Sequence record: PQ511146.1
Direction: 5' to 3' (one strand)
DNA: 64,000 bases
DNA from: Escherichia phage NHEP1
This document shows, in pieces, positions 86 through 51,306 of this stretch. Position numbers and translations under genes: made by a program. Every line of letters begins with the position of its first letter. Position 1 is the first letter of the stretch. The notes under the pieces were generated by a model. That model made no database searches. It saw only the letters and a list, made by a program, of their open reading frames with translations, and was not told where the DNA came from.

Positions 86-490
86 TTAATAAGTTTTCAG
101 TACTTTACCGTCCAACCTGTCAAGCTGGATCTCAATAGCTGCAGAAAACCTATTGTACACCACGTCGCCCATGGAATCCAACCAGTCTATGACGTTATAC
201 ACCTGCTCTTTGTTCTTGCAGGTCCGGATCCGTTTCATGATGTAAGCCGGATCAATATTGGTACTTTCGTTGGTGTTCCCCTGTACCTGATTTGCCGTAT
301 TAGTTACATCTTTAATGGCCTTTACCACCACCTGGAAGGGCTTTAAGGTGCCTTTTGCGTTCATCTCACGCACTTTTGCGGCGCGGTTGTTATAGGTTAC
401 ACAACGGCGGCAAATGTTCACTAAGTGCATGTCAATAATTTTTTCATCGTTTGCCAGTTCGTTCATGATGCGGCGTACGTTCTTATTCAT
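86..490 (-). CDS. hypothetical protein (134 aa)
   Basis: ATG with AAGGA SD about 8 nt upstream; no recognisable motif. Confidence 0.6.
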   Translation of the reverse strand: MNKNVRRIMNELANDEKIIDMHLVNICRRCVTYNNRAAKVREMNAKGTLKPFQVVVKAIKDVTNTANQVQGNTNESTNIDPAYIMKRIRTCKNKEQVYNVIDWLDSMGDVVYNRFSAAIEIQLDRLDGKVLKTY

Positions 491-510
491 GATCTTTTTC
501 CTTTGTGTTG

Positions 511-533
511 GCGGGAAACATTCCCGCCTTTTG
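511..533. promoter_or_regulatory. GC-rich hairpin GGCGGGAA-aca-TTCCCGCC in 5'UTR of gene 86..490
   Basis: 8-bp inverted repeat seen in sequence; followed by T-rich tract on plus strand. Confidence 0.3.
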
Positions 534-538
534 TGATT

Positions 539-566
539 AGTTTACTTGAATTTTGCAGCGTGTCAA
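539..566 (-). promoter_or_regulatory. sigma70-like promoter (TTGACA-16-TAAACT)
   Basis: -35 consensus hexamer with acceptable -10 upstream of gene 86..490. Confidence 0.3.
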
Positions 567-572
567 CAATTT

Positions 573-971
573 TTATTCGTGGGCGCATGTTACAATGTGC
601 TTTTTATAGCCCAGGTGGTTAGCAAGTGCCGACAAAAACTCTTCTTCATAGATCCAGCCGTTGGCAGTGATCCCCATAGCATTTAATGCGCTCTCAAGTG
701 CTGCATTAGCTTTATCGTAACCGTGACCGCTCGCCTTCCCGCCAGTATAACCGTACTTATTGTTCTTGTTGTCGTGAATCCAAAAAACACAGTATTGAGT
801 GTTCCCGCTGGCGGCGGCATAATACCGGATCTCAGCTACTTCGTGCAAATTATTGTCATCGTCCAGGCCCACCAGATTATAAGCCTTGTAAAATCCACGA
901 TCACGGCGGCAGTTCTTGACATCAGAAAAAGAAAAGTCCGCATTATCAAAATTAAAGGTAGTGGTTTTCAT
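573..971 (-). CDS. hypothetical protein (132 aa)
   Basis: ATG with AAGAGGA SD 7 nt upstream. Confidence 0.6.
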   Translation of the reverse strand: MKTTTFNFDNADFSFSDVKNCRRDRGFYKAYNLVGLDDDNNLHEVAEIRYYAAASGNTQYCVFWIHDNKNNKYGYTGGKASGHGYDKANAALESALNAMGITANGWIYEEEFLSALANHLGYKKHIVTCAHE

Positions 972-1003
972 GATTTTATCCTCTTAGTGTCTTTTGTGCT
1001 TTT

Positions 1004-1032
1004 AGTGTATTTGGTGTCAGAATGTATGTCAA
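1004..1032 (-). promoter_or_regulatory. sigma70-like promoter (TTGACA-17-TACACT)
   Basis: consensus -35 with weak -10 upstream of gene 573..971. Confidence 0.3.
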
Positions 1033-1035
1033 TAC

Positions 1036-1233
1036 TTATTTTTTATTAAACCAGTGGTTGATCTGGCCTTTTGTCAGGGCGCAACGATTAAGCTGTTGCC
1101 GGGTGTAGCTCTGACCGCGACGGAATTTATAAAGGCCTTGCCCGTTGTTGATGGTTACGTCCACCTGGCAAATCATTTGATCGGTGACGGCCTGGCGAGT
1201 GTTGCGACGTACTTTAATTCCGTAGGCGTTCAT
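1036..1233 (-). CDS. hypothetical small basic protein (65 aa)
   Basis: ATG with GAGAGGA SD; R/K/Q-rich. Confidence 0.55.
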   Translation of the reverse strand: MNAYGIKVRRNTRQAVTDQMICQVDVTINNGQGLYKFRRGQSYTRQQLNRCALTKGQINHWFNKK

Positions 1234-1285
1234 GATTTTTATCCTCTCTGTTAATTAGTGTGGTGTTGTTCACCTTGCGAGGATA

Positions 1286-1313
1286 AGAATAACAGAACTA
1301 TCCGAGCTGTCAA
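1286..1313 (-). promoter_or_regulatory. sigma70-like promoter (TTGACA-16-TATTCT)
   Basis: consensus -35 upstream of gene 1036..1233. Confidence 0.3.
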
Positions 1314-1633
1314 CCATTAGTTAGAATTATTTTTTGGGCAGAATTCTCCAGCCGCCGCCACTGCCAGGTTAACCATCATTTTTTCGTACTCTTCTTTATG
1401 TTCCAACGCTCCCGCCATAGCCTTTTCAACCAGGGCGATAGCCTCAGCGTCATTAATCGCTACATTTTCCAGGGGGGATCCTATTACCTTTCATTTTTGT
1501 ACCTCTTCTTCAGTTGTTGCCTACCCTGCATAGGCCCACCAGGTTTGCAAGCCTTCATTCTCCCCTACCTGGTCAGTTAGGTCCTGCCAGGCTGGCCCCG
1601 CCAGGTTGCAACGGTTAGCGCATCAGGTTAGAA

Positions 1634-3294: not shown

Positions 3295-3627
3295 TTAAGG
3301 TAACCAGTAAACAATCTCGCCTTTCAGTTCCATACCATTACCTACATAAATTTGCCAGCCATCCATCTTAGCTGCTGCAGGAGTAAAATCTTCAGAGCCT
3401 CTAACCTCTTTCCATGAGCCATAGTCTGGCTGCCAGATATAAAATCCACCTTCTTTGTCCCATGCGCAATACACCACGTTCAACCAGTTACCCATTGCAA
3501 CAATGGTGGGCCGTGGGAATAATACATCTACAGATGCGCAGCAATATCGGGTATCTTTTAAATTGCAATCCCAAAAGATGTCTGCCAGTGTGGCGGCGAT
3601 AGCTTTACGTCTTTCTAATGTTACCAT
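3295..3627 (-). CDS. hypothetical protein (110 aa)
   Basis: ATG start; operon context. Confidence 0.55.
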   Translation of the reverse strand: MVTLERRKAIAATLADIFWDCNLKDTRYCCASVDVLFPRPTIVAMGNWLNVVYCAWDKEGGFYIWQPDYGSWKEVRGSEDFTPAAAKMDGWQIYVGNGMELKGEIVYWLP

Positions 3628-3637
3628 GGTACGATAC

Positions 3638-3829
3638 TCACTTGTTGTTAAGAAGTTCTAAAACTTTCTGTTTTACTTTATCAAGATCTGTTGATTCAAA
3701 AACTGTGCGATATCCCCAACTTTGCCCATAGGAATGACTGCAATCACCGTAACACCATTGCTCAACCTGATAGTATTCAAGGAATGGGTGCTGTCTAACT
3801 ATGATACCGTCTCGATTAAAAATTACCAT
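3638..3829 (-). CDS. hypothetical protein (63 aa)
   Basis: ATG with GAGAGGGA SD. Confidence 0.55.
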   Translation of the reverse strand: MVIFNRDGIIVRQHPFLEYYQVEQWCYGDCSHSYGQSWGYRTVFESTDLDKVKQKVLELLNNK

Positions 3830-3860
3830 AATTTATCCCTCTCTGCTAGTTTATGTTTAT

Positions 3861-3888
3861 ATTATATACCGCAGTTTTCAGATGTCAA
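3861..3888 (-). promoter_or_regulatory. sigma70-like promoter (TTGACA-16-TATAAT)
   Basis: both hexamers consensus; intergenic, upstream of gene 3638..3829. Confidence 0.5.
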
Positions 3889-3892
3889 CCTT

Positions 3893-4087
3893 TTACAGGT
3901 TACTCCAGTATACTCGGCATTTACACTTCGGGCAATGAGGTTCTTTTATGTAATAACCGTCAGTCTTTGGAACACTTTTTGGTGCAGTTTTAAGATTGTA
4001 CCGAGTAAAGCAACGGAAGCAGGTTACCTCTCCTACCTGTTGATCGTTTATCCACTCGCCAGAGTAAAGCTCTTTCTTGTTTCTCAT
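3893..4087 (-). CDS. zinc-ribbon protein (64 aa)
   Basis: ATG with GGGGAGA SD; CxxC...CxxC; track GTG extension to 4144 is less likely. Confidence 0.5.
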   Translation of the reverse strand: MRNKKELYSGEWINDQQVGEVTCFRCFTRYNLKTAPKSVPKTDGYYIKEPHCPKCKCRVYWSNL

Positions 4088-7277: not shown

Positions 7278-7642
7278 TATTTATCTCCTTGTTCTTCGTT
7301 AGTGTTTGCCGTGTGTGCAAACCCTGCTTGAATTAATTTGTCCTGAACTTGAGCCAACAGGCCCATTGCAAAACTTGTGGTCCCAGAGAGGGCCATCAGC
7401 ATATCTCGTTGTTGAGCTACCCAACCTAAGGCATAGTCCAAACGACGATATTTTTCTTCTTCACGCAGAGCCTGGAATAATTGTTCAGCCTCTGGCTGTT
7501 GTGTAAGCTCCTGAAGTCTTCCCATGAAAGAAGAAAGCACTAGCAGAAGAGACACTTGATCTTTACTTAACCCTAAGAAAAATTCTTGAGGTTGTTCTTG
7601 CTCGTTCATCGCAACCGACGCTTGATCGTTCATTTGTTCCAT
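7277..7642 (-). CDS. hypothetical protein (121 aa)
   Basis: ATG 8 nt after GGAG; track TTG extension to 7753 covers hairpin and promoter-like sequence. Confidence 0.5.
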   Translation of the reverse strand: MEQMNDQASVAMNEQEQPQEFFLGLSKDQVSLLLVLSSFMGRLQELTQQPEAEQLFQALREEEKYRRLDYALGWVAQQRDMLMALSGTTSFAMGLLAQVQDKLIQAGFAHTANTNEEQGDK

Positions 7643-7725: not shown

Positions 7726-7971
7726 TTAGCCAATTACTTCGAAAGTACCCCAACTCCCGTTCAGCAGGCAGGTGATCGGATCACCATCATCGTCAATTAT
7801 TTCAAAGTTTTCAACATCCAGAATATGGTCATCGAACACAATGCTCTTATCGCCACCACCAGAAATAACAGCGTATTCCTTACCTTGTGTTAGGTTCTGG
7901 CAACCTTTGCCGCCGAAACCAACTTCAACACAACGTACTTTCTGTCCTGCGCGAGCAACTACTCCAGCCAT
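7726..7971 (-). CDS. hypothetical protein (81 aa)
   Basis: ATG start; operon context. Confidence 0.55.
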   Translation of the reverse strand: MAGVVARAGQKVRCVEVGFGGKGCQNLTQGKEYAVISGGGDKSIVFDDHILDVENFEIIDDDGDPITCLLNGSWGTFEVIG

Positions 7972-7988: not shown

Positions 7989-8291
7989 TTAATCGTCAAG
8001 TTCAAAATAGATTTTAACAGCTTCATCAAAGATTGGAATCCCGATGTTGTTGATAAGCTGCCAAACTACCATATCTTTTCCTGGATCTGGGAGAATGTCA
8101 ACCTTTCTCCATGCGCTATATATCCAGTTCGGACCGCCTTCTGCACTAACTGGTAGATTTTCACCAGCTTCTTGTAAATACTTATACAGCAAAAGGTATT
8201 CTGGGTACTCTAGAACACTGTCCTCTGTAGTATATAGCAGTTCACGGTATACTTTCAAGAATCCTGTTGGGTTGATGTTTTCAGTCTTCAT
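7989..8291 (-). CDS. hypothetical protein (100 aa)
   Basis: ATG 8 nt after AGGAGA; track start 8309 lacks an SD. Confidence 0.5.
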   Translation of the reverse strand: MKTENINPTGFLKVYRELLYTTEDSVLEYPEYLLLYKYLQEAGENLPVSAEGGPNWIYSAWRKVDILPDPGKDMVVWQLINNIGIPIFDEAVKIYFELDD

Positions 8292-8682
8292 TTGCTGCTT
8301 CTCCTGCATTCATCAGATCTGCCATAGCGTCACCAACGAAGAGGACAACCACGTCGTTGACAGCGTCAGCATCATCTTTATTGATGTTGCTGAATTTGGG
8401 GCACACTGCAATGACCATATAGACCCCGTTGCCCAACTGAACAGTGCGTGTAGTGCACATTAGTGTGGTGCTTGTGCCTTCTTTAAAGGCAAATCCTTGC
8501 AGACGTTCTTCCAGAGAGTCACCTGTGGATTTCAACAAGGCAAGATCGCCCAATGCGTAGGTAGTGTCCTCATAGGTCAGTCCAGAGGTCAATGTTGCCT
8601 TTCCATCAGAAACTATAATAACCCCATCGGCACCGTCAAGCTCAGAGGCTTCAAAGATATTAATATCCCAAATGTTTTTCAT
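8281..8682 (-). CDS. hypothetical protein (133 aa)
   Basis: ATG after GAGGAA; overlaps upstream stop. Confidence 0.55.
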   Translation of the reverse strand: MKNIWDINIFEASELDGADGVIIVSDGKATLTSGLTYEDTTYALGDLALLKSTGDSLEERLQGFAFKEGTSTTLMCTTRTVQLGNGVYMVIAVCPKFSNINKDDADAVNDVVVLFVGDAMADLMNAGEAANED

Positions 8683-8942
8683 CACGCTTCCTCGTCATCT
8701 AATGGGTTGAAGATTTCACCGAAGTATTCTAAGACTTCCAGCTCACGGGTGGTGCAGAAAACACAGTCCCCGTTGTCATCTTCGATAACGGCCTCTTTAC
8801 CAAGAACATCAACTTCAAATTCGTCGTTTAACAGAACGGAACCTGTGTAAACTTTATCTGCCGTGCAGTCCCGAAAAGCAGAGTCCTTCTCCAAGTAGTC
8901 TGGCTTAACCTTGGCTTTAATTCGTTGATATTGTTTGGTCAT
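8682..8942 (-). CDS. small protein, paralog family A (86 aa)
   Basis: ATG downstream of promoter; shares AF(R/K)DCT...DD(N/E)GD.V(F/W)CT motif with gene 9006..9260. Confidence 0.5.
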   Translation of the reverse strand: MTKQYQRIKAKVKPDYLEKDSAFRDCTADKVYTGSVLLNDEFEVDVLGKEAVIEDDNGDCVFCTTRELEVLEYFGEIFNPLDDEEA

Positions 8943-8973
8943 TGCTGTGGTCCCCTTTCGTTTTGATAGGGCC

Positions 8974-9002
8974 ATTATATTAGGCCCTATCGCTATTGTC
9001 AA
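8974..9002 (-). promoter_or_regulatory. consensus sigma70 promoter (TTGACA-17-TATAAT)
   Basis: verified through translation of the track ORF: its TTG 'start' is the -35 hexamer; spacer and -10 lie within palindrome ATAGGGCC...GGCCCTAT. Confidence 0.6.
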
Positions 9003-9005
9003 GTA

Positions 9006-9260
9006 TTAATGCTCAGGTTTTACAAAAACTACTTCGTTAACAGTGCACCAGACAGAATCCCCTTCATCATCTTTAAAGGTAAGACACTGGGCCGAGTTTT
9101 CCAACTCATCAAGTTCTTCTTGTGATAAATAGGTCCCTTCTTCCAGAAGGGCTTTTACCAGAGGGTTCTCACAAAACTCTGCTTCATAAATTGCACCGAG
9201 TGTGCAATCTTTAAAAGCTCGGTCATTTGCAACGCATTCTGGCTTCAAAGTAATTTTCAT
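9006..9260 (-). CDS. small protein, paralog family A (84 aa)
   Basis: ATG start; paralogous to gene 8682..8942. Confidence 0.55.
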   Translation of the reverse strand: MKITLKPECVANDRAFKDCTLGAIYEAEFCENPLVKALLEEGTYLSQEELDELENSAQCLTFKDDEGDSVWCTVNEVVFVKPEH

Positions 9261-9310
9261 CTTGGCGGTCTCCTTAATTATTTAAAATCAACGCTCTGTC
9301 TGTGTGGGGT

Positions 9311-9339
9311 ATCTTACATCTACCCCAACTTGTTGTCAA
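9311..9339 (-). promoter_or_regulatory. sigma70-like promoter (TTGACA-17-TAAGAT)
   Basis: consensus -35 overlapping stop of upstream gene; same -10 as the plus promoter at 29441. Confidence 0.45.
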
Positions 9340-9707
9340 CGACTATTTTCAATCATCCACCAAGGATCGAGATAAGTTTGTTGACTTTTTGCCCACTGGC
9401 AAACTTCATTGTACATCTGGATCTCTTTGTCCGTCAGTTCACGAATAGGCTCATCTATACCCTCATTTTTGTGGTAATCCCAGTCGGCATCGATTTCCCA
9501 CAACCATGACTTACGATCTTCACGTTTACGCACACAGAAGTCCCCAGGACGGCCTGCCAGTGCATTTAGGAACTCGTTCTCCGCTCGCTCCTGGAGAATA
9601 CTAAGGAGCAAAACGTTGGAGCATGACCGTAAAATATGCTTCAGCTCACAATCATCGATCTCAACTTCAATACGTTGCTTGACTGTGTGGGTACCTTTTA
9701 CTAACAT
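9336..9707 (-). CDS. hypothetical protein (123 aa)
   Basis: ATG 4 nt after GAGGAGG; track TTG start at 9734. Confidence 0.55.
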   Translation of the reverse strand: MLVKGTHTVKQRIEVEIDDCELKHILRSCSNVLLLSILQERAENEFLNALAGRPGDFCVRKREDRKSWLWEIDADWDYHKNEGIDEPIRELTDKEIQMYNEVCQWAKSQQTYLDPWWMIENSR

Positions 9708-9717
9708 TCTACCTCCT

Positions 9718-9912
9718 CTAGACGAACTCTGCAAGGGTTGTGTTGTTCACTGCACCGCAGTAGATGGAGTATCCCAACCCGTTAGGGTGTAGAAACCACG
9801 GCACACCTTGATCATCCTTCACGTATACATCTCCATTTTCCGTAAAGGGCCAATACTCTTCTCCAAGGGTAAAATACCTACTCATACCTTCAGCCAGATA
9901 CTTTACTTTCAT
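9718..9912 (-). CDS. small protein, paralog family B (64 aa)
   Basis: shares G..Y.V...D..G..WF/WY motif with the next two genes. Confidence 0.5.
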   Translation of the reverse strand: MKVKYLAEGMSRYFTLGEEYWPFTENGDVYVKDDQGVPWFLHPNGLGYSIYCGAVNNTTLAEFV

Positions 9913-10136
9913 AGATCCTCTTCAACAGCTACAAACTTGGCAAGTAGGGTGGTTCCATAGATATGATACTCACCGTTTGCCAGATGGGAGATAAACCAGG
10001 CAACACCGTCCTCGTCTTCGATCATATTGTTTCTGCGATCCTCGTCGTAATAAACCTTGTAGACCTTACCTTCTTCAAAGAATGATAGGTCTGTCATCTT
10101 CTCTTCTACAAATGTCGCTTTAACCAAAGTTGTCAT
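9909..10136 (-). CDS. small protein, paralog family B (75 aa)
   Basis: ATGA overlap with neighbours; paralog motif. Confidence 0.5.
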   Translation of the reverse strand: MTTLVKATFVEEKMTDLSFFEEGKVYKVYYDEDRRNNMIEDEDGVAWFISHLANGEYHIYGTTLLAKFVAVEEDL

Positions 10137-10417
10137 TGATCTGCCTCCTTCTTGTTGAGCCGGAACACTGCAATAATAGCATTTCCAAGATGCAGTGTCA
10201 AATCATTTCCCAGATACCATAACATTCCACGGTCATCTTTAATGAAAGGGTAACAATCCGGTGCCTTCCAGACATTATACACTTTGCCGACCTGAAAGAA
10301 ATCAGGCCCTGTTGGAATTTTAGTACCGGGCCATACTTGGGACACCTGAACGCATTCTACCTGCATAATGACAGGGATAGTCATGGAGGTAAATGTTTTT
10401 GTTGGTTCTACTACCAT
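10133..10417 (-). CDS. small protein, paralog family B (94 aa)
   Basis: ATG after GAGAGGAGA; track extension to 10507 would overlap the polymerase 3' end. Confidence 0.5.
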   Translation of the reverse strand: MVVEPTKTFTSMTIPVIMQVECVQVSQVWPGTKIPTGPDFFQVGKVYNVWKAPDCYPFIKDDRGMLWYLGNDLTLHLGNAIIAVFRLNKKEADQ

Positions 10418-10466: not shown

Positions 10467-13400
10467 TTAGTGACAATCACCCCAGTTACGACCGCACAAG
10501 TATTCACCTGTGATCTGGAACGGAACGCCCATCATTTTAGAAGCCTGCCAGAAGCAATGCACCACCATTTCGCCCACAGGGCTCCAGATAAGCTCAAGCT
10601 TTCCGTCATCATTCAAGATAGGATCGTATACCGTATTTCCATCCTTGTCAACCACTTCGTTTCCGTCCTCATCTTTGCGTGCCTTTTTGTACTTATGACC
10701 GTCGAACACATGAAGTTTAGCCTCTTGTTGGGCTTTAAATGTTTCCAGCTCTTCAATTGTGTCGAAGGTGTATACGGTTTTATACTTAGGTGTGTCAGGC
10801 ACTTGAAGCTGATATTCGTCATGGTAATAGATAATACGACGAACACCCTCATCATACCATCCACGCTTCACCATCTGGTGGTGCATGAGGATTCCGACCA
10901 AGTCGCACAACGATGCACCGCCATTTTGCTGATATGCATTAAGCAAAGAGTGTTTAGAGCGGGTCCAAATGGCATGCCCGTCAAAAGAGTAGATAAATTT
11001 CTTACCTGTTGCTTCCCAGAATTTCTCCAGATCCTCTTTACGCCCCTTAAGGCCCGGGTTGGCATCCCAGAGAGCATCAATTACTCTCTGTCCAAGTTCT
11101 GGAGAGATATCTAGCATATCTGCAACTTTATCTTTTTGTGCCCCGTACATAACCCCATATGTGACAGGCTTACCATCGTTACGGGAAATCTCCTTGCCTG
11201 CTACAGAAGAGTAAGCTTTGGCGTTATTACAGTTACCGCACACTGCCACTTTACCATTCCTTCTCACAATGATTGCTCCAGAAGGGACGGTAACGCAATA
11301 AACCAAAGAACCGCTCACCTCGACAGACTCTTTAGATAGTGTCAGCAACCCTGCTCTCTGTTTGCTACCAATCGTGATTCTGTGCTGTACGGAACGACCT
11401 TTTTTGTGAATCGCCACCGTATTATTCCGTAAACCACACTGAGTAGCCAGCGCAGACACAACCTCTACAGATTTCTTCCTGCACCCGGCCTGAGAGTAGT
11501 AGGCAACTTTTCCACCTTCGGAAGATACCCACCCGTCCCAGTTAGATAAAGAAGCTATAAACAGGTTTTTAGATTCTTTATCAAGGTCCATCAGGTTGTA
11601 GGTGAAATCCTTATTGCTGTCCAAAAACTCAAATACCCAGGACGGAACGTGGAATTGGAACCTTCTCGCCAGTAAGCCCCCTTTTGTGGTTTTCCCGCTC
11701 TGCTCTACATAACTAAGGCTTAGAGCAGAAAAAGTATCTAAAAGCGTTGCAACTTTTCTGCCCTTCCCGACCTGAATCCTGCACACGATGCTGCCGTCCT
11801 TATTTGTATGCAAGTGCCCATCATCGTGAATAGCAATAAGCAAATTAACCTGGGCAGGAGATAAGGTTGTATTCCCATAAAACTCTGCCGCATGGATAAA
11901 CCTTCTTCCTGAATTAGACCCTTTACCTGCTTTCAGGTCTTTTGCCAAATCTTCAAACAATTTATTGCTTCTGTGATCCACGGTCAGCATCCTGTGTTGA
12001 TCTGTAACCATAAAATCCACACTGCTGTTGTGGAAATGATACATATCCCCACAATAACTACGCTTAACGTAATTTAATGGAGTAACAAGGTTCATCGACG
12101 AGGTGTTGTGATCGTACTGGAACACCTGTGTTCCCGGATCAAGATCTTCAAACCTCACCCACCCTTTCTCCGTGAGAATTTGTGTATCTCCTGAATAACA
12201 GTGTGCATCGCCGTTACTTACAACATCATAATACAGACCGTTGTCAAACTCAAAGGCACCCCAGGCCCCGATGAGCTGCTCTAAGTTGGACCCGTCAATA
12301 CCGATCTCAAAGTATCCTGGAGGAACACCCCACAGACTACGCATCTCTTTACCCATAACCACTTTAGGAGATGGTTTAGGCATGTTTGCACAAATACTAT
12401 GTTTCTGTCTGGAAGTGTTTGTTAATCCAGAACTTTTAGCAGGAAGCTTGTGGTCAATCTTCAAACGTGGATGATTAAGAAGACCAGTATCAACCTTATC
12501 TTCCTTGATTGGATCAAGGACCGATCTGCGGTTTCGCAATGATAACCACAAAACGATATCTTTAGCCATCTCTCCGTTCAATTTTTCAAGATTCGGGCAC
12601 AGGTGTCCAAACGTATCTTTCAGTTGCGGAGAAGTAATAAGCGCTCTGGCTTTTCTACGTATCTTCCCAAACACTTCCTTTTTAATCCTTTCTGAGTTAG
12701 GGAAGCTTCGGAACTTATGCACAGTTGTCTGGAACTTGGCATCAGTTTTGTTCCAGAAGTTGATAATTAGATCACAATACTCTGACTCCAAAAGCTCGTC
12801 CATATATGCATATACTCGTGCATCAACATCTGCATCAGGTAAAGCTTTCTTCTTGCTGTCTTTAGTTACATCTTTAGTTCTCCACATTGTTGGGAGCCAA
12901 CCAGCACTGATCAGGTATCGCTTGATGTCGTCCTGATTGCTGATTTTCATAGGTATCTTGCAGTCAGGCATTCGCTTCTGCTGTAGGTCACTTATCGCCT
13001 GATCCATCAGCTCTTTAGGTAAAGGGTGTGGTGTAGAAGTTCCTTTGATATACCCCCTCAAGAAATCAGCCATCTTATCGGGGTCTTTACAGCCCATCTC
13101 TTCACACCATTTTATCCCCATCTTACTTACATCCCCTGTGGAGGTAAATGCTCGCTTAGGAGGAGCTTTGAACTCTAAAGCACTCATGTCCACAGGGTAG
13201 CCAAGCTTGTCTTTTAACCATTTCCAACCATTATTGGAGATTGTCCCATCTTGGTTAAACGGCTTTTCAGGGAACTTAGGCCGCTGAGACATTGATAACT
13301 CTTTTAAAGGAAGTTGTGGTTCAACACGATCAGCGATCTCTTTCATCCACGCATCGCAACGGTCACGTAAAGCAATAGCCCCATCTATGTCGAAATACAC

Positions 13401-14213
13401 CCCCTGTCGAGCCTGCAGCTCCATCAGGAAGTGCTGTAACATGCCTCGGCGTAATGCGTTCTTCCAGGTGATCTTCTTGAAGCCTTTCGGCTTCTCTTTG
13501 GCAGGATCGTACATAAAGTTCTGCATGTCAGATTTGCCGTAGAATACACCTTTTGATTCCGCTACCAACTCCTTCCAGAGCAACTCCTGGATGATAACGT
13601 CCTCGAACACACGATCCACATACTTCCACAGTGGAAGCTCACGCCAGTCATCGATTTGAACTTTCTGGTTACCAAGGGCATAGCCCCATGCCATAAGGCC
13701 ATGAGGCCCAACAGGCTGCATTTTCTTGGTAACTGGATTGAATACTGCGTCCGGACAACCTTTTGGCAAAGGGCGGTCAGGCCACAAGATTCGGCTCATC
13801 GCTAACGTATCAAACAGATTAACCGGGTGGTCGTTGATAGTCCCCATGCATTTAGGATCACGGAACATATCAAAATGAATACCGGATAATCTTTCCATCA
13901 GCATAAAGTCGTAACTGTAGCAGTTATGACAGTTCAAAGCCGTAGGTGACCAGTCTGAATTGCCTGTAAGCCAACCTTCCAACTCTGAAAAATCTGCTAT
14001 GCGAGCCTCAAAATCTGTATAAAGGGTCTTCTTTGCCAGAATGAAGTTCTTAGCTTTCTCCACATCCTCTTCAGAGTAGTGTGTGCGGTCATTTAGAGGA
14101 AGGAACAGCATAAAACGGTTCTTATTCAGCTCTTTAAACAAACCGCAGTGATAATAAAGATCTGGGTCTTCCAGCAGGCCAGAGGCCTCAAAATCGAACG
14201 ACCACATGCTCAT
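10467..14213 (-). CDS. family A DNA polymerase (3'-5' exo + pol) interrupted by an intein
   Basis: Exo I FDFEASGL; motif A IGIDGSNLEQL; motif B KPVTYGVMYG; motif C YYHDEY; AAGGAG SD; 1248-aa precursor. Confidence 0.9.
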   Translation of the reverse strand: MSMWSFDFEASGLLEDPDLYYHCGLFKELNKNRFMLFLPLNDRTHYSEEDVEKAKNFILAKKTLYTDFEARIADFSELEGWLTGNSDWSPTALNCHNCYSYDFMLMERLSGIHFDMFRDPKCMGTINDHPVNLFDTLAMSRILWPDRPLPKGCPDAVFNPVTKKMQPVGPHGLMAWGYALGNQKVQIDDWRELPLWKYVDRVFEDVIIQELLWKELVAESKGVFYGKSDMQNFMYDPAKEKPKGFKKITWKNALRRGMLQHFLMELQARQGVYFDIDGAIALRDRCDAWMKEIADRVEPQLPLKELSMSQRPKFPEKPFNQDGTISNNGWKWLKDKLGYPVDMSALEFKAPPKRAFTSTGDVSKMGIKWCEEMGCKDPDKMADFLRGYIKGTSTPHPLPKELMDQAISDLQQKRMPDCKIPMKISNQDDIKRYLISAGWLPTMWRTKDVTKDSKKKALPDADVDARVYAYMDELLESEYCDLIINFWNKTDAKFQTTVHKFRSFPNSERIKKEVFGKIRRKARALITSPQLKDTFGHLCPNLEKLNGEMAKDIVLWLSLRNRRSVLDPIKEDKVDTGLLNHPRLKIDHKLPAKSSGLTNTSRQKHSICANMPKPSPKVVMGKEMRSLWGVPPGYFEIGIDGSNLEQLIGAWGAFEFDNGLYYDVVSNGDAHCYSGDTQILTEKGWVRFEDLDPGTQVFQYDHNTSSMNLVTPLNYVKRSYCGDMYHFHNSSVDFMVTDQHRMLTVDHRSNKLFEDLAKDLKAGKGSNSGRRFIHAAEFYGNTTLSPAQVNLLIAIHDDGHLHTNKDGSIVCRIQVGKGRKVATLLDTFSALSLSYVEQSGKTTKGGLLARRFQFHVPSWVFEFLDSNKDFTYNLMDLDKESKNLFIASLSNWDGWVSSEGGKVAYYSQAGCRKKSVEVVSALATQCGLRNNTVAIHKKGRSVQHRITIGSKQRAGLLTLSKESVEVSGSLVYCVTVPSGAIIVRRNGKVAVCGNCNNAKAYSSVAGKEISRNDGKPVTYGVMYGAQKDKVADMLDISPELGQRVIDALWDANPGLKGRKEDLEKFWEATGKKFIYSFDGHAIWTRSKHSLLNAYQQNGGASLCDLVGILMHHQMVKRGWYDEGVRRIIYYHDEYQLQVPDTPKYKTVYTFDTIEELETFKAQQEAKLHVFDGHKYKKARKDEDGNEVVDKDGNTVYDPILNDDGKLELIWSPVGEMVVHCFWQASKMMGVPFQITGEYLCGRNWGDCH
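11232..12200 (-). other. intein (about 323 aa) within DNA polymerase, with LAGLIDADG-like endonuclease insert
   Basis: N-terminal CYSGDTQIL after extein ...GDAH; block B TDQH; block F VYCVTV; C-terminal ...VCGN followed by +1 Cys; LLIAIHDDGH and LFIASLSNWDGW resemble LAGLIDADG motifs. Confidence 0.7.
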
Positions 14214-14271: not shown

Positions 14272-16350
14272 TTAAAAAGGTGTTTCGTCGTCTTCAAAAC
14301 CAGGAACGTGGTTAGAGGACGGATCATCATACTGAAGGTCTTCCTGTGTGTCAACAGGGTTAACAGCAGGGGTTATAACCTTATCAGCCACAACCTTGCC
14401 CACAGGTGTTTCTACAACTGCATGCTCCTGATCCTCAAACATAGCCTGAGGTCTCCAAACAACCTCCCCACCTTCCCCGTCTGTAAACATCTGCATTTCT
14501 TTGTCCCAGTACCAGTTGCTGGCATCATAGAACTTGCCTGTGTGGGGATCCATAACTAGAGTGTCCGCAATACCTAAGGTTTTTGCTGGGCGGTTTTTAA
14601 GACCTACCAGTCGGACACGTCCACGGGAACGATCCACCATCTCCTCTGCCTCTACCCCGACAACCACCCAGCTAAGTTGCTCCAATCCGGCACTACCGCG
14701 AAGGTTCTCTTTTCGTACAGGGTACCAGAAAGGTAACGGATTTCCATCCTTATCCTTCGGAGGTACAATCTCTGTGCGCTTCAGGTGAGCAATCACCAAG
14801 ATAAACACATTAAACTGCTTACAGAACGCGGCTAGTTGAGTCATAGCCATGTCAAGCTCTTTACGCTCATCCTTAACATTAAGCCCTGAAATCACCATAG
14901 ACAGGTGATCCAGCACAATGTAACGGCAGTGATACAGGCACACCATTTGTTTAAGCTTAGTGATCAGCTCATCTACAGGGATGGAGCCGAAATGCTTGAA
15001 CACTTTGATTTTTCCGGCCTTGGCCCAAGATTGATGAATCTCAGCGTGCTCCTGATCGGTCAGGAACTGACTGGGGTCTTCAACAAACTCTTTAACATCA
15101 AACCCCAGCTGGTTAGCGTACAGAGAGTTGATTGCTTCCTCAGGATCCTCTTCAAGGTGAATCAGGCACAGGCGATCATCCTCTTCATAATCATCAGCTT
15201 TAGGGCATGTTGGATCCATCAAGTATCTTGCAATGCAATGTTCCAGCTTCTTGGCTACAGTTGTTTTACCACCGCCAGACGGGCCTGTCAGCATCATCAA
15301 GGTGCCTTTGTGGAGTCCTTTCAGCATCTTCTGCAGTTTAGGGAACTCTGCACTGATATCTACGCCATTGGAAGTCTTCTTACGAAGAGATTCAATGGAG
15401 AAGTCTTCTAAATCAGATACAGCATCAGGCACATATTTGACTGGGTGACGGAACATGTTGACAATATCTTCCAGCTTTTTAGCCTTCAGCATGTCACGAA
15501 TATCTTTTACACCATCAGGGTCGTTTACCTCACCCGGGTATTCCACGTGGTAAACGTTATCAGCCATCAAAAATGCTGCGATATTATGTGTGGCTTCAAC
15601 ACCTTTAATAACGTGTTTTTGCTTCTCTACCTCGTTAGCTGCATCGTTGTCCATTGCAAGGACCACTGTTCCGTAGCTACGGATAAATTTCTCATTGTTC
15701 GCAAAAGTGTCTACGGCGTTTGCACACCCACAGTTAATTCCAACAAAAGGCAGGCATGGTTTTCCTGCCAGATCCCCGCCGTTGATAACTGCATCAATCC
15801 CATCCTGGACTTCTTTAGCCCACTGCTTCACCTTCGCTGGGGCTTTAGCATTGGTGAGAATTCCTTTTACTTGTATCTGATATGCAGCCTGCCACGCTGC
15901 AATAACATCTCCTTCTCCCTCACAAACGTTAATCTGCTTACGGTTGTTGGAGGATGCACACAGCTTTTGACCAAACATCTGGGAGTTGGCCTTTACTATG
16001 CCAACAACCGAGAAATGGCCCCTTTGCTCTTTAGGGATTGTCCAGTCACGCTTTTTAAAGCCAGATAGATTACCGTAGCGGTCATAATACGGAAAGTAGG
16101 TGGCAGTAACAGTTACACCATCCTCTTGGGATAGCGATGATCGTACACCAAAATATTGTGCAGCCATCAGTCCAATATTTTGTTGTGGAACAGGGACAAT
16201 TTTAGTGTTTTCTAAAACAGTCTCCACAGTTTCAACTTCTTTTTCATCACGATAGTCTCGTTTCACACTCCCCCCACTTTTATACTTAGTTGCTTTCGGG
16301 TTTGGCTCACCGAAACGGTTGTATGCAGATGCCATGAATTTACTGCCCAT
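14272..16350 (-). CDS. T7 gp4-like DNA primase-helicase
   Basis: TOPRIM-like VCEGEGDVIAAW; DnaB-type Walker A GPSGGGKTT and Walker B IVLDHL; acidic C-terminus ending DDETPF; AAGGAGAAG SD; no Cys4 zinc-binding domain seen. Confidence 0.85.
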   Translation of the reverse strand: MGSKFMASAYNRFGEPNPKATKYKSGGSVKRDYRDEKEVETVETVLENTKIVPVPQQNIGLMAAQYFGVRSSLSQEDGVTVTATYFPYYDRYGNLSGFKKRDWTIPKEQRGHFSVVGIVKANSQMFGQKLCASSNNRKQINVCEGEGDVIAAWQAAYQIQVKGILTNAKAPAKVKQWAKEVQDGIDAVINGGDLAGKPCLPFVGINCGCANAVDTFANNEKFIRSYGTVVLAMDNDAANEVEKQKHVIKGVEATHNIAAFLMADNVYHVEYPGEVNDPDGVKDIRDMLKAKKLEDIVNMFRHPVKYVPDAVSDLEDFSIESLRKKTSNGVDISAEFPKLQKMLKGLHKGTLMMLTGPSGGGKTTVAKKLEHCIARYLMDPTCPKADDYEEDDRLCLIHLEEDPEEAINSLYANQLGFDVKEFVEDPSQFLTDQEHAEIHQSWAKAGKIKVFKHFGSIPVDELITKLKQMVCLYHCRYIVLDHLSMVISGLNVKDERKELDMAMTQLAAFCKQFNVFILVIAHLKRTEIVPPKDKDGNPLPFWYPVRKENLRGSAGLEQLSWVVVGVEAEEMVDRSRGRVRLVGLKNRPAKTLGIADTLVMDPHTGKFYDASNWYWDKEMQMFTDGEGGEVVWRPQAMFEDQEHAVVETPVGKVVADKVITPAVNPVDTQEDLQYDDPSSNHVPGFEDDETPF

Positions 16351-28439: not shown

Positions 28440-29335
28440 ATCTCCGCGTAAATTAAACTGGAATCAGTATACTTCTTTAGTGGGTAAATATCCTGTCCAT
28501 AGATGCCGTCATTAAACACCTCATCTACCCAAAGGCTACACTTATATCCCATCATCTCTAAAACACCCATCTCTTCTTCGGTAAACTTATCACCGCTCTT
28601 GCAAGATGTCAATACCTCATTCTGTACTCTTGCCACCTCGAAGCGGTTATTGGCAATATCGCTATTAGCGATCAAATACTCACCCAAAGGGTGTGCGGCA
28701 TTAAAGATGCACAGTGGACGGTTGACGTAATAGTCTCCAGGTGTATAAAAATTATTGAGGTCTTTCACTAGAACATTCTTATCAGTCACTTCATTCATAA
28801 CATCATGCATATCGCACATCTTTATATGTTTGAGGATTCCATCCCCCATCACAAAATAAAAACTTGCTGAAACACTTTCGGCATAGATCTTACTAGATCC
28901 GTTGTAGTTGTATTTTACTCGGATGCTAACGGGGGTTTTTCCTGTCGCGTTAGCCATCATCCAAAGAAATGGCAGCTCATACTTCTCCTCTGAGGAAACA
29001 AAAGGTGAAGTTGCCAGAGATCGGAAACCTCCAGAGAAGTTGAAAGTTACAGAACCGCTCCGGCGGTATGATACTGCGTATTCCACTTTTATATCAACAT
29101 ATCCGTTGGAGTAAGTATGCCCTCCATTATCAAGGTATGTCCACTTATCGGACCCAGATACCAACCTCCGCTCAATTACCTTCATCACTACAGGGATTAG
29201 CGGATTAGTACAAACCGATTTTGAAGTAGCTTTATCATCCAAAGCCTCGTAAATTGCAGAAAGGATATCACCTGCTGAGAGATTGGTTGTGATATCTTGT
29301 TTCCACCTGGTGCTAAAACTGTTAAGATTTGCCAT
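28436..29335 (-). CDS. hypothetical protein (299 aa), first gene of the long minus-strand operon
   Basis: ATG with AGGAGC SD directly downstream of promoter 29376..29404. Confidence 0.65.
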   Translation of the reverse strand: MANLNSFSTRWKQDITTNLSAGDILSAIYEALDDKATSKSVCTNPLIPVVMKVIERRLVSGSDKWTYLDNGGHTYSNGYVDIKVEYAVSYRRSGSVTFNFSGGFRSLATSPFVSSEEKYELPFLWMMANATGKTPVSIRVKYNYNGSSKIYAESVSASFYFVMGDGILKHIKMCDMHDVMNEVTDKNVLVKDLNNFYTPGDYYVNRPLCIFNAAHPLGEYLIANSDIANNRFEVARVQNEVLTSCKSGDKFTEEEMGVLEMMGYKCSLWVDEVFNDGIYGQDIYPLKKYTDSSLIYAEI

Positions 29336-35398: not shown

Positions 35399-35502
35399 CC
35401 TATTTTAAGGCCTCAAACGAGGCCTATGCCTTCATAAACTACCTGCCTCTGTGTGATTACCCTTCTAAATAAAATACCCTCTCAAATTGCTTAAAATTAA
35501 GC

Positions 35503-35531
35503 TTGACATCAACACCAGATTTATATATGAT
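35503..35531 (+). promoter_or_regulatory. sigma70-like promoter (TTGACA-17-TATGAT)
   Basis: intergenic; consensus -35, 5/6 -10; the track TTG start at 35487 lies upstream of it. Confidence 0.55.
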
Positions 35532-35561
35532 TATCTCATCAACCAAGCAGAGGAGATTGTC

Positions 35562-35969
35562 ATGGATAATCTTGCGAGTGTGAACGTCGAAATTGTTAAA
35601 CTAAAGTTCTTGGGCTTTCGAGACCCTAATTCTCTAACAGCTATACTGATGGATACCCACTTCACACCTGGGAAAGAGTACACTGCCTTCCGTTATATTT
35701 GTGGAGATCACGAATCGGCCTATAGTGTGAATACAAACCTCGGCGAGGGATATTTCATCAAAGATATCACAGATCACTTGTGGGGTATGTGGGAATTGGT
35801 GGAAGAAGAGAATAAATCCCTTCCCAAAGAGATTTGGGTGCACACCTTCCACACAGGTAAGTTCGGAGGTACGGAACATAAGTCTATCCACTATGAAGAA
35901 GAAAGTGCCATCAAACAACAAGCTGTGCTTGGTGGATCTGTAGAAAAATTTGTTAAATGCGAGGACTGA
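35562..35969 (+). CDS. hypothetical protein (135 aa)
   Basis: ATG 5 nt after AGGAGA. Confidence 0.55.
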   Translation: MDNLASVNVEIVKLKFLGFRDPNSLTAILMDTHFTPGKEYTAFRYICGDHESAYSVNTNLGEGYFIKDITDHLWGMWELVEEENKSLPKEIWVHTFHTGKFGGTEHKSIHYEEESAIKQQAVLGGSVEKFVKCED

Positions 35970-45992: not shown

Positions 45993-47033
45993 CTACGCAT
46001 AATTAACAGTGATCCATTGACCATTTACAAGTTTTTGTAAAGGACCTGCCCAGTAGGTTGAACCACGCATCTCTTTTTTATCACCAAAATGCCAACCTGT
46101 GACAACGTAGCCGTTGCGAACTGGAGATTCAGAAACACCATCAACAAGTCTTGCACCGATTCTGATATCCTGTACCCCTGTCTGCGGGATGGTGATCGTT
46201 ACATCGCCGTTACCGTTAGCCGTCACTCCATTCACAGAGCGCACCACATTTCTGTTACCGACAACACAGTGCTGGCTTCTTACAACCATACTGTCACAAC
46301 TTGCGCCGCCATTAACATATACTGACCCAGCCGTCAACTGACTAGCTACATTGCAGTTGGTGAATGTTGCTGTGCTGCTAATGGTGAGGTTATTACATCG
46401 CATGTTATCAACAACTTCAACATTGCCCACCACTTTCAACAACGCACGATTAGCCGTGATCGCGTTCAGGTACATCAGAGTGAACTCTGGGTTAATGTCC
46501 GGCTGAGTTGGCTGGAATCTCCAACGGAACGCATCTACTGTAGATGTACCACCATCATCGAACGCCCCAATATTATCACTTAACCCAAAGTCAAGAGTTG
46601 TCTTATCTGGGCCAATAGTTGTCTCTATCCAAGCCTTATCTGTCTCGGCAGCTTTAAAGTTGATACGTTGCAAACCCAATGGGCCTGTCATTGTATCACC
46701 TGTAACTTTTACATACCTGGCGTCTGCCTCTTCCTTAGTAATAATCCCAAGGTTTCTACGGGCAACAGGGATGTTTAAAAGATCACTCAAGTTATTATCA
46801 CGTACCAGATAACGCCCTTCTTGAGCGGGGATCTGCTCGTCAGCAATGTATTTTGCCCAAGTTCCGAGCATATTGAAAATATAGTTAAGTTCTTCACAGG
46901 ATGGCTTTTGACCAAGATCCCAACCTTTTCTCCACAAATCATCAATCGGGCGTAGCCTGTTCTGTCTGTGGGTGTTAGGCAGAACCTGATCCTCCTCTGC
47001 CCAAATCTCTAATGGAAAACTAGGTTTTGACAT
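45993..47033 (-). CDS. tail fibre protein, paralog 2
   Basis: paralog of gene 43934..44977; AGGAGA SD. Confidence 0.65.
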   Translation of the reverse strand: MSKPSFPLEIWAEEDQVLPNTHRQNRLRPIDDLWRKGWDLGQKPSCEELNYIFNMLGTWAKYIADEQIPAQEGRYLVRDNNLSDLLNIPVARRNLGIITKEEADARYVKVTGDTMTGPLGLQRINFKAAETDKAWIETTIGPDKTTLDFGLSDNIGAFDDGGTSTVDAFRWRFQPTQPDINPEFTLMYLNAITANRALLKVVGNVEVVDNMRCNNLTISSTATFTNCNVASQLTAGSVYVNGGASCDSMVVRSQHCVVGNRNVVRSVNGVTANGNGDVTITIPQTGVQDIRIGARLVDGVSESPVRNGYVVTGWHFGDKKEMRGSTYWAGPLQKLVNGQWITVNYA

Positions 47034-47045
47034 TTTATCTCCTGA

Positions 47046-49815: not shown

Positions 49816-51306
49816 TTAAATAGTTTGTTGGAAAGTTATATTACTTTCGTCGAGGTCAAACACCTCGGTCATGTTTGCAACAATATCGTTTGTAGTGTAA
49901 GCTTCGTCAGAGGCTCCTACAGGTTTAACTTGAATTACCAATCTGTTAAATCTGCCTATCGACACAGCAGCGGATGCAGCACCTACCAATTGGATATTGT
50001 ACAACGTATCGGCGACATCCAAGCCGTTAACAACCTGTAAAAGAGCCTCTACAATGGCATCTTTTTCGGTTGTGGAAAGCGCAGCACCTGAGTAGGTAAT
50101 TCTTACATCTAGGCGGTAGGTATTTGCCTTGGAGTAATAAATCCTTTCAGTCTGACCGTCTGATGTGGTAATATCGTAGAAGATATTCCCATAAGTTCTG
50201 TTTGTGCAAGCTATGGTTTGATACAGTGCCTGACAGATATCCTCTGTTGCACCACCAAACACCACCACTTGAAACTTATAAGGTGGTATACCTTTCGCAT
50301 CCGTTTTATCGGTGTTGTTGGAGAACACTCTTACTTTCTCAACACCTTTCACCTCGCTTACAGCGCTAAGGATTGCAGGACGGGTAGCTTTAGATGTCAG
50401 CTGTTTAGTGCTGGAAGCTCTTAAGCGATACTCAGAGTCTTTCTCAACATCCCTACCCTCATTGAATCTTTCTCGGTTGGTAAGCTTGATAAATCCACTG
50501 GGAGTAGGTGACATTGTTGTCACGGTTTCTGCCTCTCTTGACAGCTCACCAGCCTCGTTAGCGATAACATCTAGGGTGATAGTTCTTTCCCCTACAATCG
50601 GGGATACTCTGAAATCTACCCTGCTATTAAGTCCAACTTGATCAAGATTCGAATTGTACCCTATCCACAACGTCCCTGTCAACATATCTATCTGAATTAG
50701 ATCATCATTCAGCAGGGTTGTATTATCGACAATGAATTGCTTAATCTCGCCGTAAAAGCTTGGCAAATCAGAAGAGTCCAGAGCCTTATCTGTTAAAACC
50801 AGACTTTTTGTTTTGATACTTCCGTCTGTCTGGTTGGTAATTTGAAAGTTGTATTTCCCAATTCTTAGGTCTGGAGCGTTTATTCTGTGAGCAATAAGAT
50901 TTCCCGCCACCTGCACATCGTTGCTAAGAACAAAGTTGCCACTGTCCAGCGTATAAGTTTTGGAATCATAAATCATATTGTACGGCACAGTTGTGTTGAT
51001 TGTCAACTGGCAGGTACCTGATGATTTAGAACGGCCTCTTCGGTAAATACCCTGTCTTCCAAGAAGCTCATCCAGGTAAATACCTTCTGCCCCATATAGC
51101 GTCTGTGATGCGTATACAGATGCTGCCATAAGAATAAGTTGATATTCTCGCTCGTTGAAAATAGTGGTCAGCTTATCTGCAACTGAGTTACTTTGTACGT
51201 TGAAGTTTTCGCCAAAAGCACGGATCAGGCTTTGCTTAGTTTCAACGATTAGGTCATTTAGGGTTGGTATAACGAAACCAGCCTCTGTCAATCCATACTT
51301 AGCCAC
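49816..51306 (-). CDS. structural protein, possibly baseplate J-like (496 aa)
   Basis: GTG 4 nt after GGAGGAG; first gene after internal promoter; tentative family call. Confidence 0.5.
   Translation of the reverse strand: MAKYGLTEAGFVIPTLNDLIVETKQSLIRAFGENFNVQSNSVADKLTTIFNEREYQLILMAASVYASQTLYGAEGIYLDELLGRQGIYRRGRSKSSGTCQLTINTTVPYNMIYDSKTYTLDSGNFVLSNDVQVAGNLIAHRINAPDLRIGKYNFQITNQTDGSIKTKSLVLTDKALDSSDLPSFYGEIKQFIVDNTTLLNDDLIQIDMLTGTLWIGYNSNLDQVGLNSRVDFRVSPIVGERTITLDVIANEAGELSREAETVTTMSPTPSGFIKLTNRERFNEGRDVEKDSEYRLRASSTKQLTSKATRPAILSAVSEVKGVEKVRVFSNNTDKTDAKGIPPYKFQVVVFGGATEDICQALYQTIACTNRTYGNIFYDITTSDGQTERIYYSKANTYRLDVRITYSGAALSTTEKDAIVEALLQVVNGLDVADTLYNIQLVGAASAAVSIGRFNRLVIQVKPVGASDEAYTTNDIVANMTEVFDLDESNITFQQTI

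Follow-up and report, generated by a model that had tools for sequence, protein, structure and literature searches.

A family of small β-rich domain proteins encoded beside the DNA polymerase gene of Escherichia phage NHEP1

In phage T7, the small class II genes that come after gene 5 (gp5.5, gp5.7 and gp5.9) encode binders of the host proteins H-NS, sigma-S and RecBCD. A comparable string of small-protein genes lies just downstream of the family-A DNA polymerase gene in the stretch of Escherichia phage NHEP1 analysed here (64,000 nucleotides of sequence record PQ511146.1, hereafter the window), although the T7 proteins are not paralogues of one another. The window is a Vequintavirus-type genome, that of an rV5/FV3-like E. 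coli myophage, and some rV5-like phages have been used against E. coli O157:H7 contamination in food. Six of its small genes, here called g1 to g5 and gA, carry the label 'hypothetical protein' in more than a hundred deposited rV5-like genomes, and the rV5 genome paper makes no mention of these paralogues. A second point of comparison is the Pfam family DUF7244, which InterPro places in the SH3 clan. Its genes adjoin the lysis cassette of Drexlerviridae, and a lysis-accessory role in T1-like phages has been proposed for it without experiment (PMC13164509).

Here we report that gA and g1 to g5 each encode one copy of a β-rich domain of about 60–80 amino acids, laid out as an N-terminal strand, a short helix and a β-hairpin framed by the turn motifs (F/W)xTxGKxYxV and (I/V)xDDxG. 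In transcription order, the six genes are:

g5, 10133..10417, minus strand: 94 amino acids, orthologue of rV5 gp219, family 2, with a longer N-terminal stretch
g4, 9909..10136, minus strand: 75 amino acids, orthologue of rV5 gp218, family 2
g3, 9718..9912, minus strand: 64 amino acids, orthologue of rV5 gp217, family 2
g2, 9006..9260, minus strand: 84 amino acids, orthologue of rV5 gp215, family 1
g1, 8682..8942, minus strand: 86 amino acids, orthologue of rV5 gp214, family 1
gA, 7726..7971, minus strand: 81 amino acids, orthologue of rV5 gp211, a further member of the domain family of g3 to g5

A sequence-only reading of the window had proposed two families of tandemly duplicated proteins among g1 to g5, and our alignments uphold both. 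The five open reading frames (ORFs) are present at these positions on the minus strand, each with an ATG start and a Shine-Dalgarno-like sequence, and the signature motifs can be read in them: AFRDCT...DDNGDCVFCT in g1 and AFKDCT...DDEGDSVWCT in g2 for family 1, and GKVYKV...DEDGVAWF in g4, GKVYNV...DDRGMLWY in g5 and GEEYWP...DDQGVPWF in g3 for family 2, where g3 departs from the pattern with a P at the V position. By BLASTP, g1 and g2 are 30% identical over 77 columns, g3 and g4 35% over 55, and g4 and g5 36% over 45. When all 36 pairs of the nine local proteins were aligned by the Smith-Waterman method and compared with 2000 shuffles, the four proposed pairs ranked top four (z = 11.0, 7.5, 5.4 and 9.6), with none of the 2000 shuffles reaching them, and the next best pair had z = 4.2. 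Cross-matches among the PHROG families agree: g1 matches the family of g2 and vice versa, both match phrog_17459, and g3, g4 and g5 have secondary matches to phrog_3249, phrog_3523 and phrog_12922 in common. The best full-length PHROG matches of the six proteins are all to families without assigned function, namely phrog_4927 for gA (4e-26), phrog_11936 for g1 (3e-54), phrog_12544 for g2 (2e-57), phrog_12802 for g3 (9e-48), phrog_12623 for g4 (5e-50) and phrog_12922 for g5 (3e-67). A DNA-level repeat was sought among the array genes and none was found, so the duplications are old and visible in the proteins only.

The wider family emerged from a three-sequence profile of g3 to g5, which was scored with hmmsearch against 1.84 billion representative proteins and gave 15 significant matches, orthologues included. 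Six of the matched proteins (P0049, P0052, P0053, P0055, P0056 and P0057), 179–571 amino acids long, match the profile 2–5 times each, and the 22 repeat units of about 70 amino acids that they contain align cleanly around (F/W)xTxGKxYxV ... (I/V)xDDxG ... fExV. Three others were rejected as spurious, their scores being sums of weak matches to unrelated repeats: P0048 (a β-helix with GW-type repeats), P0051 (113-amino-acid low-complexity repeats) and P0054 (Fn3/Ig repeats). A profile built from the 22 units, which holds no window sequence, was searched against the 398 window ORFs of at least 40 amino acids. It finds g3 (E = 8e-9), g4 (E = 1.4e-8), g5 (E = 3e-8) and gA (E = 4e-6), with the next ORF at E = 0.38; as the repeat proteins had been chosen with the g3–g5 profile, the back-match to g3–g5 is partly circular, but the match to gA is not. 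Profile-to-profile comparison by hhalign with the repeat units gave a probability of 97% for family 2 and of 88–90% for gA. In the PHROG collection, the repeat proteins match phrog_4927 of gA (down to 1e-23), phrog_12802 of g3 (P0049 and P0052) and phrog_12922 of g5, as well as about two dozen more families without assigned function; phrog_3523, phrog_4927 and phrog_10169 mark this network. Judged by sequence, g3, g4, g5 and gA belong securely to a domain family that extends across unrelated phages, and the two-family scheme was incomplete in that gA, which carries an insertion duplicating the 'DD' strand, belongs with family 2. Elsewhere in the window, a 160-amino-acid ORF (35487..35969, plus strand) includes the string HFTPGKEYTAF and is matched by the family profile at a borderline E of 0.05, but its PHROG assignments lie with other families (phrog_15992).

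Members of the domain family were found in phage T1, in Edwardsiella phage MSW-3 and in Enterococcus Herelleviridae and Efquatrovirus phages, where the domain makes up a small protein by itself, recurs in neighbouring paralogous genes or forms 2–5 tandem repeats in one polypeptide. Multi-repeat proteins of the phrog_3523 type (P0049 and P0057; QPW37231 of Enterococcus phage PBEF129 and XCH00523 of SZ1) have the same unit and the same two motifs, and the Enterococcus multi-repeat genes likewise lie among early and replication genes. They differ in fusing 2–5 units through acidic linkers, often with a C-terminal K/E/L-rich helical tail, whereas the window has one unit per adjacent gene, and their hosts are Gram-positive. 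Of the Enterococcus homologues, those in Herelleviridae are encoded directly after the DNA primase gene and those in Efquatrovirus close to an SF3 helicase gene, in a set of small early genes. A family-profile scan of complete genomes recovered T1 gp58, gp68 and gp7 (two copies) and the adjacent pair ORF60/61 of MSW-3; the family members lie at 3619..3993, 7387..7590 and 46621..47037 in T1 (L008) and at 28455..28700 and 39891..40310 in MSW-3 (L007). These proteins, together with MSW-3 ORF47, represent the same domain family in unrelated siphoviruses and are all annotated as hypothetical. They are less than 25% identical to the window proteins, and T1 gp68 differs in having a hydrophobic C-terminal segment, LFNLAASLVLLVAAISLLSIM, which we take for a membrane anchor. 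When g4, g2 and a family alignment of 28 sequences were used as queries in word-indexed searches, all that came back were Vequintavirus orthologues of more than 70% identity, and there were no matches either in a related-locus search of viral contigs with P0055 and P0056 or in a tblastn search of phages with P0056.

We consider it likely that g1 and g2 are a divergent branch of the family of g3 to g5 and gA, in which case the two proposed families would be a single superfamily. The hhalign alignment sets AFRDCTxxKVY on fTxGKxYxV and (I/F)(E/K)DD(N/E)GD on IxDDxG, in register, with a score of 22 (P about 5e-4). In 150 column-permuted alignments the score was 8.5±1.9, with a maximum of 14.2 and none of the 150 reaching 22, and the reversed alignment scored 9.5; the observed score is about 7 standard deviations above the permuted null. 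The family phrog_17459 is reached from both sides, being matched by g1, g2 and the repeat protein P0056. A further connection comes from MSW-3 ORF47, an 81-amino-acid protein encoded directly after the DNA polymerase gene of that phage, which is the best non-orthologous structural match of g1 outside the genus. Its sequence is intermediate (HFRDLTPGKMY ... ILQDDVGE), and it is at once the top MSW-3 match of the family-1 profile and a weak match of the unit profile. AlphaFold2 models of g4 (mean predicted local confidence, pLDDT, 92.5) and g1 (pLDDT 82.2) have the element order β-α-β-β-β-β in common, with strands (E) and helix (H) at E2-10, H12-16, E25-31, E36-40, E46-48, E56-60 and E64-71 in g4 and at E4-12, H14-19, E31-38, E50-54, E60-64 and E68-78 in g1.

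The alternative is that the array holds two unrelated families, g1 and g2 having one fold and g3, g4 and g5 (with gA) another, with 'GKxY ... DDxG' as convergent β-hairpin turns in small acidic proteins. Several results point that way: a search of the unit profile against single sequences gives no significant link to family 1 (E = 1.2 for g1 and 4.3 for g2), the hhalign probability for family 1 is only 29–31%, and the top 50 matches of g1 and of g4 among predicted viral structures (Foldseek against BFVD) have no accession in common. Moreover, column permutation destroys β-strand periodicity, so that the null distribution may be too lenient. Against convergence stand the register of the motifs, the margin over the permuted null, the two-sided match to phrog_17459, the intermediate MSW-3 protein, the element order of the models and the presence of both families within one nine-gene cluster, and on this evidence we regard separate origins as doubtful. 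A zinc site formed by the family-1 cysteines was considered and set aside, the cysteines being too few: of those in g1, C26 and C63 alone have counterparts in g2. In g2, a helical insert (NPLVKALLEEG...) separates the two motifs, and variants in the length of this insert are seen in P0033, P0035 and P0036.

Structure comparison places the domain among uncharacterised phage proteins. Against BFVD, the g4 model matches dozens of uncharacterised proteins of 60–170 amino acids with template-modelling (TM) scores of 0.7–0.8, mostly from T1-like phages and otherwise from Cronobacter phage CR9, phAPEC8 and Enterococcus phages, with several matches in the same phage (for instance, 5 from NBD2 within the top 50). 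Foldseek found no match for the g4 model in the PDB (best E = 0.45, TM < 0.5), and sequence searches of the PDB gave nothing convincing, with a best E of 0.78 for the family-2 profile and of 0.0024 for family 1, the latter a zero-stretch match to a capsid protein. No Pfam model captures the domain family, and NCBIfam and the defence-system models of PADLOC gave no informative matches.

Sub-threshold matches to DUF7244 (PF23896) do recur, in gA, P0056, T1 gp7 and two Enterococcus proteins; among g1 to g5 there is none at E ≤ 1. T1 gp14, taken as the DUF7244 gene from the position described in PMC13164509, gives an hhalign P of 1.7e-4 (probability 49%) against gA and of 0.003 against a family alignment (A4); neither family 1 nor family 2 by itself gives a significant match. 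Its sequence (KIVKCI...FRVNQIYSV...FEIYDGRG...LEFIEI) aligns in register with the repeat unit, and DUF7244 proteins resemble those of the window in being small (about 60 amino acids), standalone phage β-proteins. However, T1 gp14 does not share the conserved GK and DDxG turns, and DUF7244 genes adjoin the lysis cassette, whereas the window genes lie in the replication block. The domain family is probably a distant relative of DUF7244, and the array proteins may belong, on these alignments, to a small SH3-clan-like domain of phages, as a branch of it that is divergent and uncurated.

Within the genus, the array is strongly conserved. The ratio of nonsynonymous to synonymous substitution rates (dN/dS) against the orthologues in FV3, rV5 and A6-1 is 0.00–0.18 over all nine small genes of the cluster, with dS of 0.1–0.85, and orthologues are 81–100% identical in amino acids. 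Per gene, dN/dS is 0.00–0.02 for g5, 0.07–0.18 for g4, 0.06–0.12 for g3, 0.08–0.13 for g2, 0.03–0.05 for g1 and 0.05–0.10 for gA. These values rule out that the ORFs are spurious: all are coding, and gA and g1 to g5 are real protein-coding genes under strong purifying selection. About 115 phage records carry g4, g1 and g2, and 120 phage records match a 7.3-kb query around the array, which takes in the DNA polymerase gene with its 969-nucleotide insertion, at 80–99% identity, at least 80% of the query being covered in 111 of the 120. Gene order is identical in FV3, rV5, A6-1, Alma and five metagenomic or viral-contig loci; in Alma (L004), the ORFs of gA, g2 and g5 are truncated, which may reflect assembly frameshifts. 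One g5 variant, P0045 (116 amino acids as listed, from an upstream start), carries an in-frame tandem duplication of 11 amino acids, KAPDCHPFIKE-KAPNCYPFIKD, beside the DDxG turn. Outside the genus, tblastn searches with g4, g1 and the neighbouring gene gC found nothing other than one marginal match for gC in a Citrobacter phage. The phage collection also holds 16 records in the MG0656xx series ('Campylobacter phage' C7, A147, D1 and others) that are 85–98% identical to rV5-like E. coli phages over this region; these 'Campylobacter jejuni' phage records look like mislabelled or co-isolated coliphages.

Arrays of this kind had also been called typical of rapidly evolving factors. Within the genus rapid evolution does not hold, given the low dN/dS and the invariant gene order, but it has some basis between lineages. 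In one divergent relative (contig L012, from Logan SRR23924973), gX, g2, g1, gC, gB, gA and the two genes that follow them, which encode proteins of 121 and 408 amino acids, are kept at 64–94% identity. Upstream of gX, positions 386..1401 of the contig hold a g3-like gene (59% identity) and then family-2 genes of 70, 68 and 76 amino acids. These three are 25–36% identical to g4, and there may be a fifth short member. The contig has no g5 orthologue, and the gene upstream of its array is not a polymerase C-terminus. The rearranged family-2 genes between conserved flanks indicate that the family-2 sub-array turns over between lineages. Family 2 appears, from these sequences, to be the site of copy-number change and rapid divergence between lineages, the set of each lineage then being conserved. 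A search of viral and metagenome contigs anchored on the 408-amino-acid neighbour returned only canonical arrays. Because the paralogues, at about 30% identity, have their closest relatives among themselves, we infer that the array arose by old local duplication and was then fixed in Vequintavirus. Purifying selection on every copy would imply that each has its own, non-redundant job.

What that job may be can be approached from the models and the gene layout. The g4 model puts DDxG at the turn between β3 and β4 and GK just ahead of β2, which suggests that the conserved motifs define a scaffold and not a binding site. The variable strand faces would carry specificity, each paralogue acting as a protein-binding module with a separate partner from the host or the phage. 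Of the six proteins, five are acidic (isoelectric point 4.2–4.6), and no signal peptide or membrane segment was apparent in any of the six when the sequences were inspected by reading. The proteins would be cytoplasmic, their genes being transcribed by host RNA polymerase alongside the replication genes, and g5, g4 and g3 might be translationally coupled through ATGA overlaps and made in a fixed ratio. The existence of fused multi-repeat relatives suggests, by Rosetta-stone logic, that the separate proteins may act side by side as a multivalent set. Taken as a whole, a six-gene domain family that arose by old duplication and serves as a set of binding modules is the account we narrowly favour; the binding-module role considered by itself is more tentative, with a somewhat less than even chance of being right. 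A broader scenario seems to us unlikely, though worth stating: the domain would be a phage-specific binding scaffold without solved structural counterpart, deployed as a small repertoire that rV5-like phages and MSW-3 keep in adjacent genes and Enterococcus phages string along one polypeptide, the turns fixing the fold while the strand faces diversify for different host proteins. On that view, the six genes of rV5-like phages would encode an unchanging panel of binders for host takeover or anti-defence, with family 2 as the site of lineage-specific expansion.

Several points weigh against this account, in addition to the weak profile and structural links of family 1 and the partly circular back-match noted above. 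The binding-module mechanism is pure inference for every member of the family. The g5 protein is near neutral (isoelectric point 6.5). Foldseek with the g4 model found no SH3 domain in the PDB, and no window protein reaches the DUF7244 gathering score, gA having 15.0 bits (E = 0.027) against the required 27. Finally, there is no detectable member after the related polymerase genes of Klebsiella phage KB57 and Cronobacter phage GAP31, which belong to other Vequintavirinae genera, or of Vibrio phage ICP1, so the position of the array beside the polymerase is not deeply conserved, and the idea of a deeply conserved, polymerase-linked array was dropped on that ground.

The sequence-only reading had favoured host-interaction or anti-defence factors. 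In its dedicated form, each paralogue would inhibit a different E. coli immune protein and the array would diversify in an arms race. The proteins are small, mostly acidic, non-structural and sigma-70-driven, tblastn searches detect their sequences only inside the genus, the family-2 genes of L012 turn over in copy number and sequence between conserved flanks, and other phages also carry multiple copies of the domain, all of which would suit such a role. Yet searches of PADLOC (which covers defence systems), NCBIfam and the PDB gave no informative matches, no similarity to characterised anti-defence proteins came up in them and the literature searched held no link to defence. Purifying selection and an invariant gene content in every canonical locus examined are also unlike typical, variable anti-defence islands. 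A dedicated anti-defence role is unlikely on this evidence. Slightly less likely again is an accessory role in phage DNA replication or nucleotide metabolism, in which the proteins would bind the polymerase or primase-helicase of the phage or replication proteins of the host; T7-like replication modules likewise have small genes after the polymerase gene. The window genes and MSW-3 ORF47 do come directly after a DNA polymerase gene, the Herelleviridae homologue directly after a primase gene and T1 gp7 two genes from a DNA helicase gene, and strict conservation fits a core accessory role. Early and replication genes interleave in small phage genomes, however, which makes adjacency weak evidence; the related polymerases of KB57, GAP31 and ICP1 have no such neighbours, the L012 array is not preceded by a polymerase C-terminus, T1 gp58 and gp68 lie away from replication genes, and the acidic charge argues against direct DNA binding. 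That the proteins are lysis-associated SH3 cell-wall binders, as proposed for the standalone DUF7244 protein of T1-like phages, draws on the weak but recurrent DUF7244 similarity and on the SH3-clan placement and lysis-cassette neighbourhood of that family (PMC13164509), but is highly improbable, since no signal peptide or membrane segment is apparent, the array is far from the lysis genes, the DUF7244 gathering score goes unmet and the lysis role is itself a hypothesis in that paper.

Binding modules for separate partners offer the simplest reading, and those partners may be host defence proteins, other host factors or the phage replisome. Six anonymous ORFs have become one tractable question, in view of their mutual kinship, their ties to about two dozen PHROG families and the occurrence of the domain both in separate genes and as intragenic repeats. 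This PHROG network extends over phages of T1-like, Edwardsiella and Enterococcus type. A single structure together with a single interaction screen would annotate a widespread phage domain, for which the Vequintavirus isolates of the BASEL collection offer a ready genetic system. At present the result is a family assignment, of moderate interest.

The six genes form part of a longer minus-strand block. Its order is DNA methyltransferase, primase/helicase (14272..16350), DNA polymerase (10467..14213) and nine small genes, which correspond to rV5 gp219 down to gp211 in transcription order, and then the genes for the 121- and 408-amino-acid proteins, both without assigned function. All nine small genes have an ATG start (GTG/ATG in gC) and a Shine-Dalgarno-like sequence upstream; the g5 stop and g4 start, and the g4 stop and g3 start, form ATGA overlaps, and the g1 stop overlaps the gC start. 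The remaining three genes of the nine are:

gX, 9336..9707, minus strand: 123 amino acids
gC, 8281..8685, minus strand: 134 amino acids, GTG/ATG start
gB, 7989..8309, minus strand: 106 amino acids, a member of Pfam DUF7238 (30.6 bits; cut-off 27)

The block had been assigned to the early region. It is indeed studded with sigma-70-type promoters, and the timing is inferred from these promoters only; a transcriptome was sought and none was found. In the GenBank entry for rV5, a sigma-70 promoter is marked ahead of the g2 orthologue, and a further element lies between g2 and g1:

g2-g1 intergenic element, 8965..9002, minus strand: perfect sigma-70 consensus TTGACA-17-TATAAT just upstream of g1

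Its -35 hexamer is at 9002..8997 and its -10 hexamer at 8979..8974, the latter in the loop of a 9-bp hairpin (8991..8965; arms GAUAGGGCC/GGCCCUAUC) that folds as RNA with -17.4 kcal/mol (z = -5.1). In rV5 and A6-1, a G-C pair of the stem has become A-T by a compensatory change, and the changes in FV3 and Alma are wobble-compatible; this pattern suggests that a conserved RNA or DNA structure overlaps this promoter. A -10 hexamer in a hairpin loop is not a general feature of the window: among 28 strong promoter-like sites, inverted repeats flank only 2, with arms of 9 bp at 9002..8974 (the site between g2 and g1) and of 6 bp at 50027..50055 (plus strand). A weaker promoter-hairpin upstream of g2 is not conserved.

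Upstream of the array, the DNA polymerase gene contains an in-frame insertion of 323 amino acids (11232..12200, minus strand) relative to the 925-amino-acid polymerase of A6-1. It starts with CYSGDTQILT and ends with ...VAVCGN followed by Cys, and from this sequence it appears intein-like; the Pfam Hint domain was not detected in it at E ≤ 0.001. Among the related records listed, 6 of 20 cover 100% of the 7.3-kb query and the other 14 cover 86%, and A6-1 is without the insertion. In the same region, FV3 has an HNH endonuclease gene and rV5 has split polymerase ORFs.

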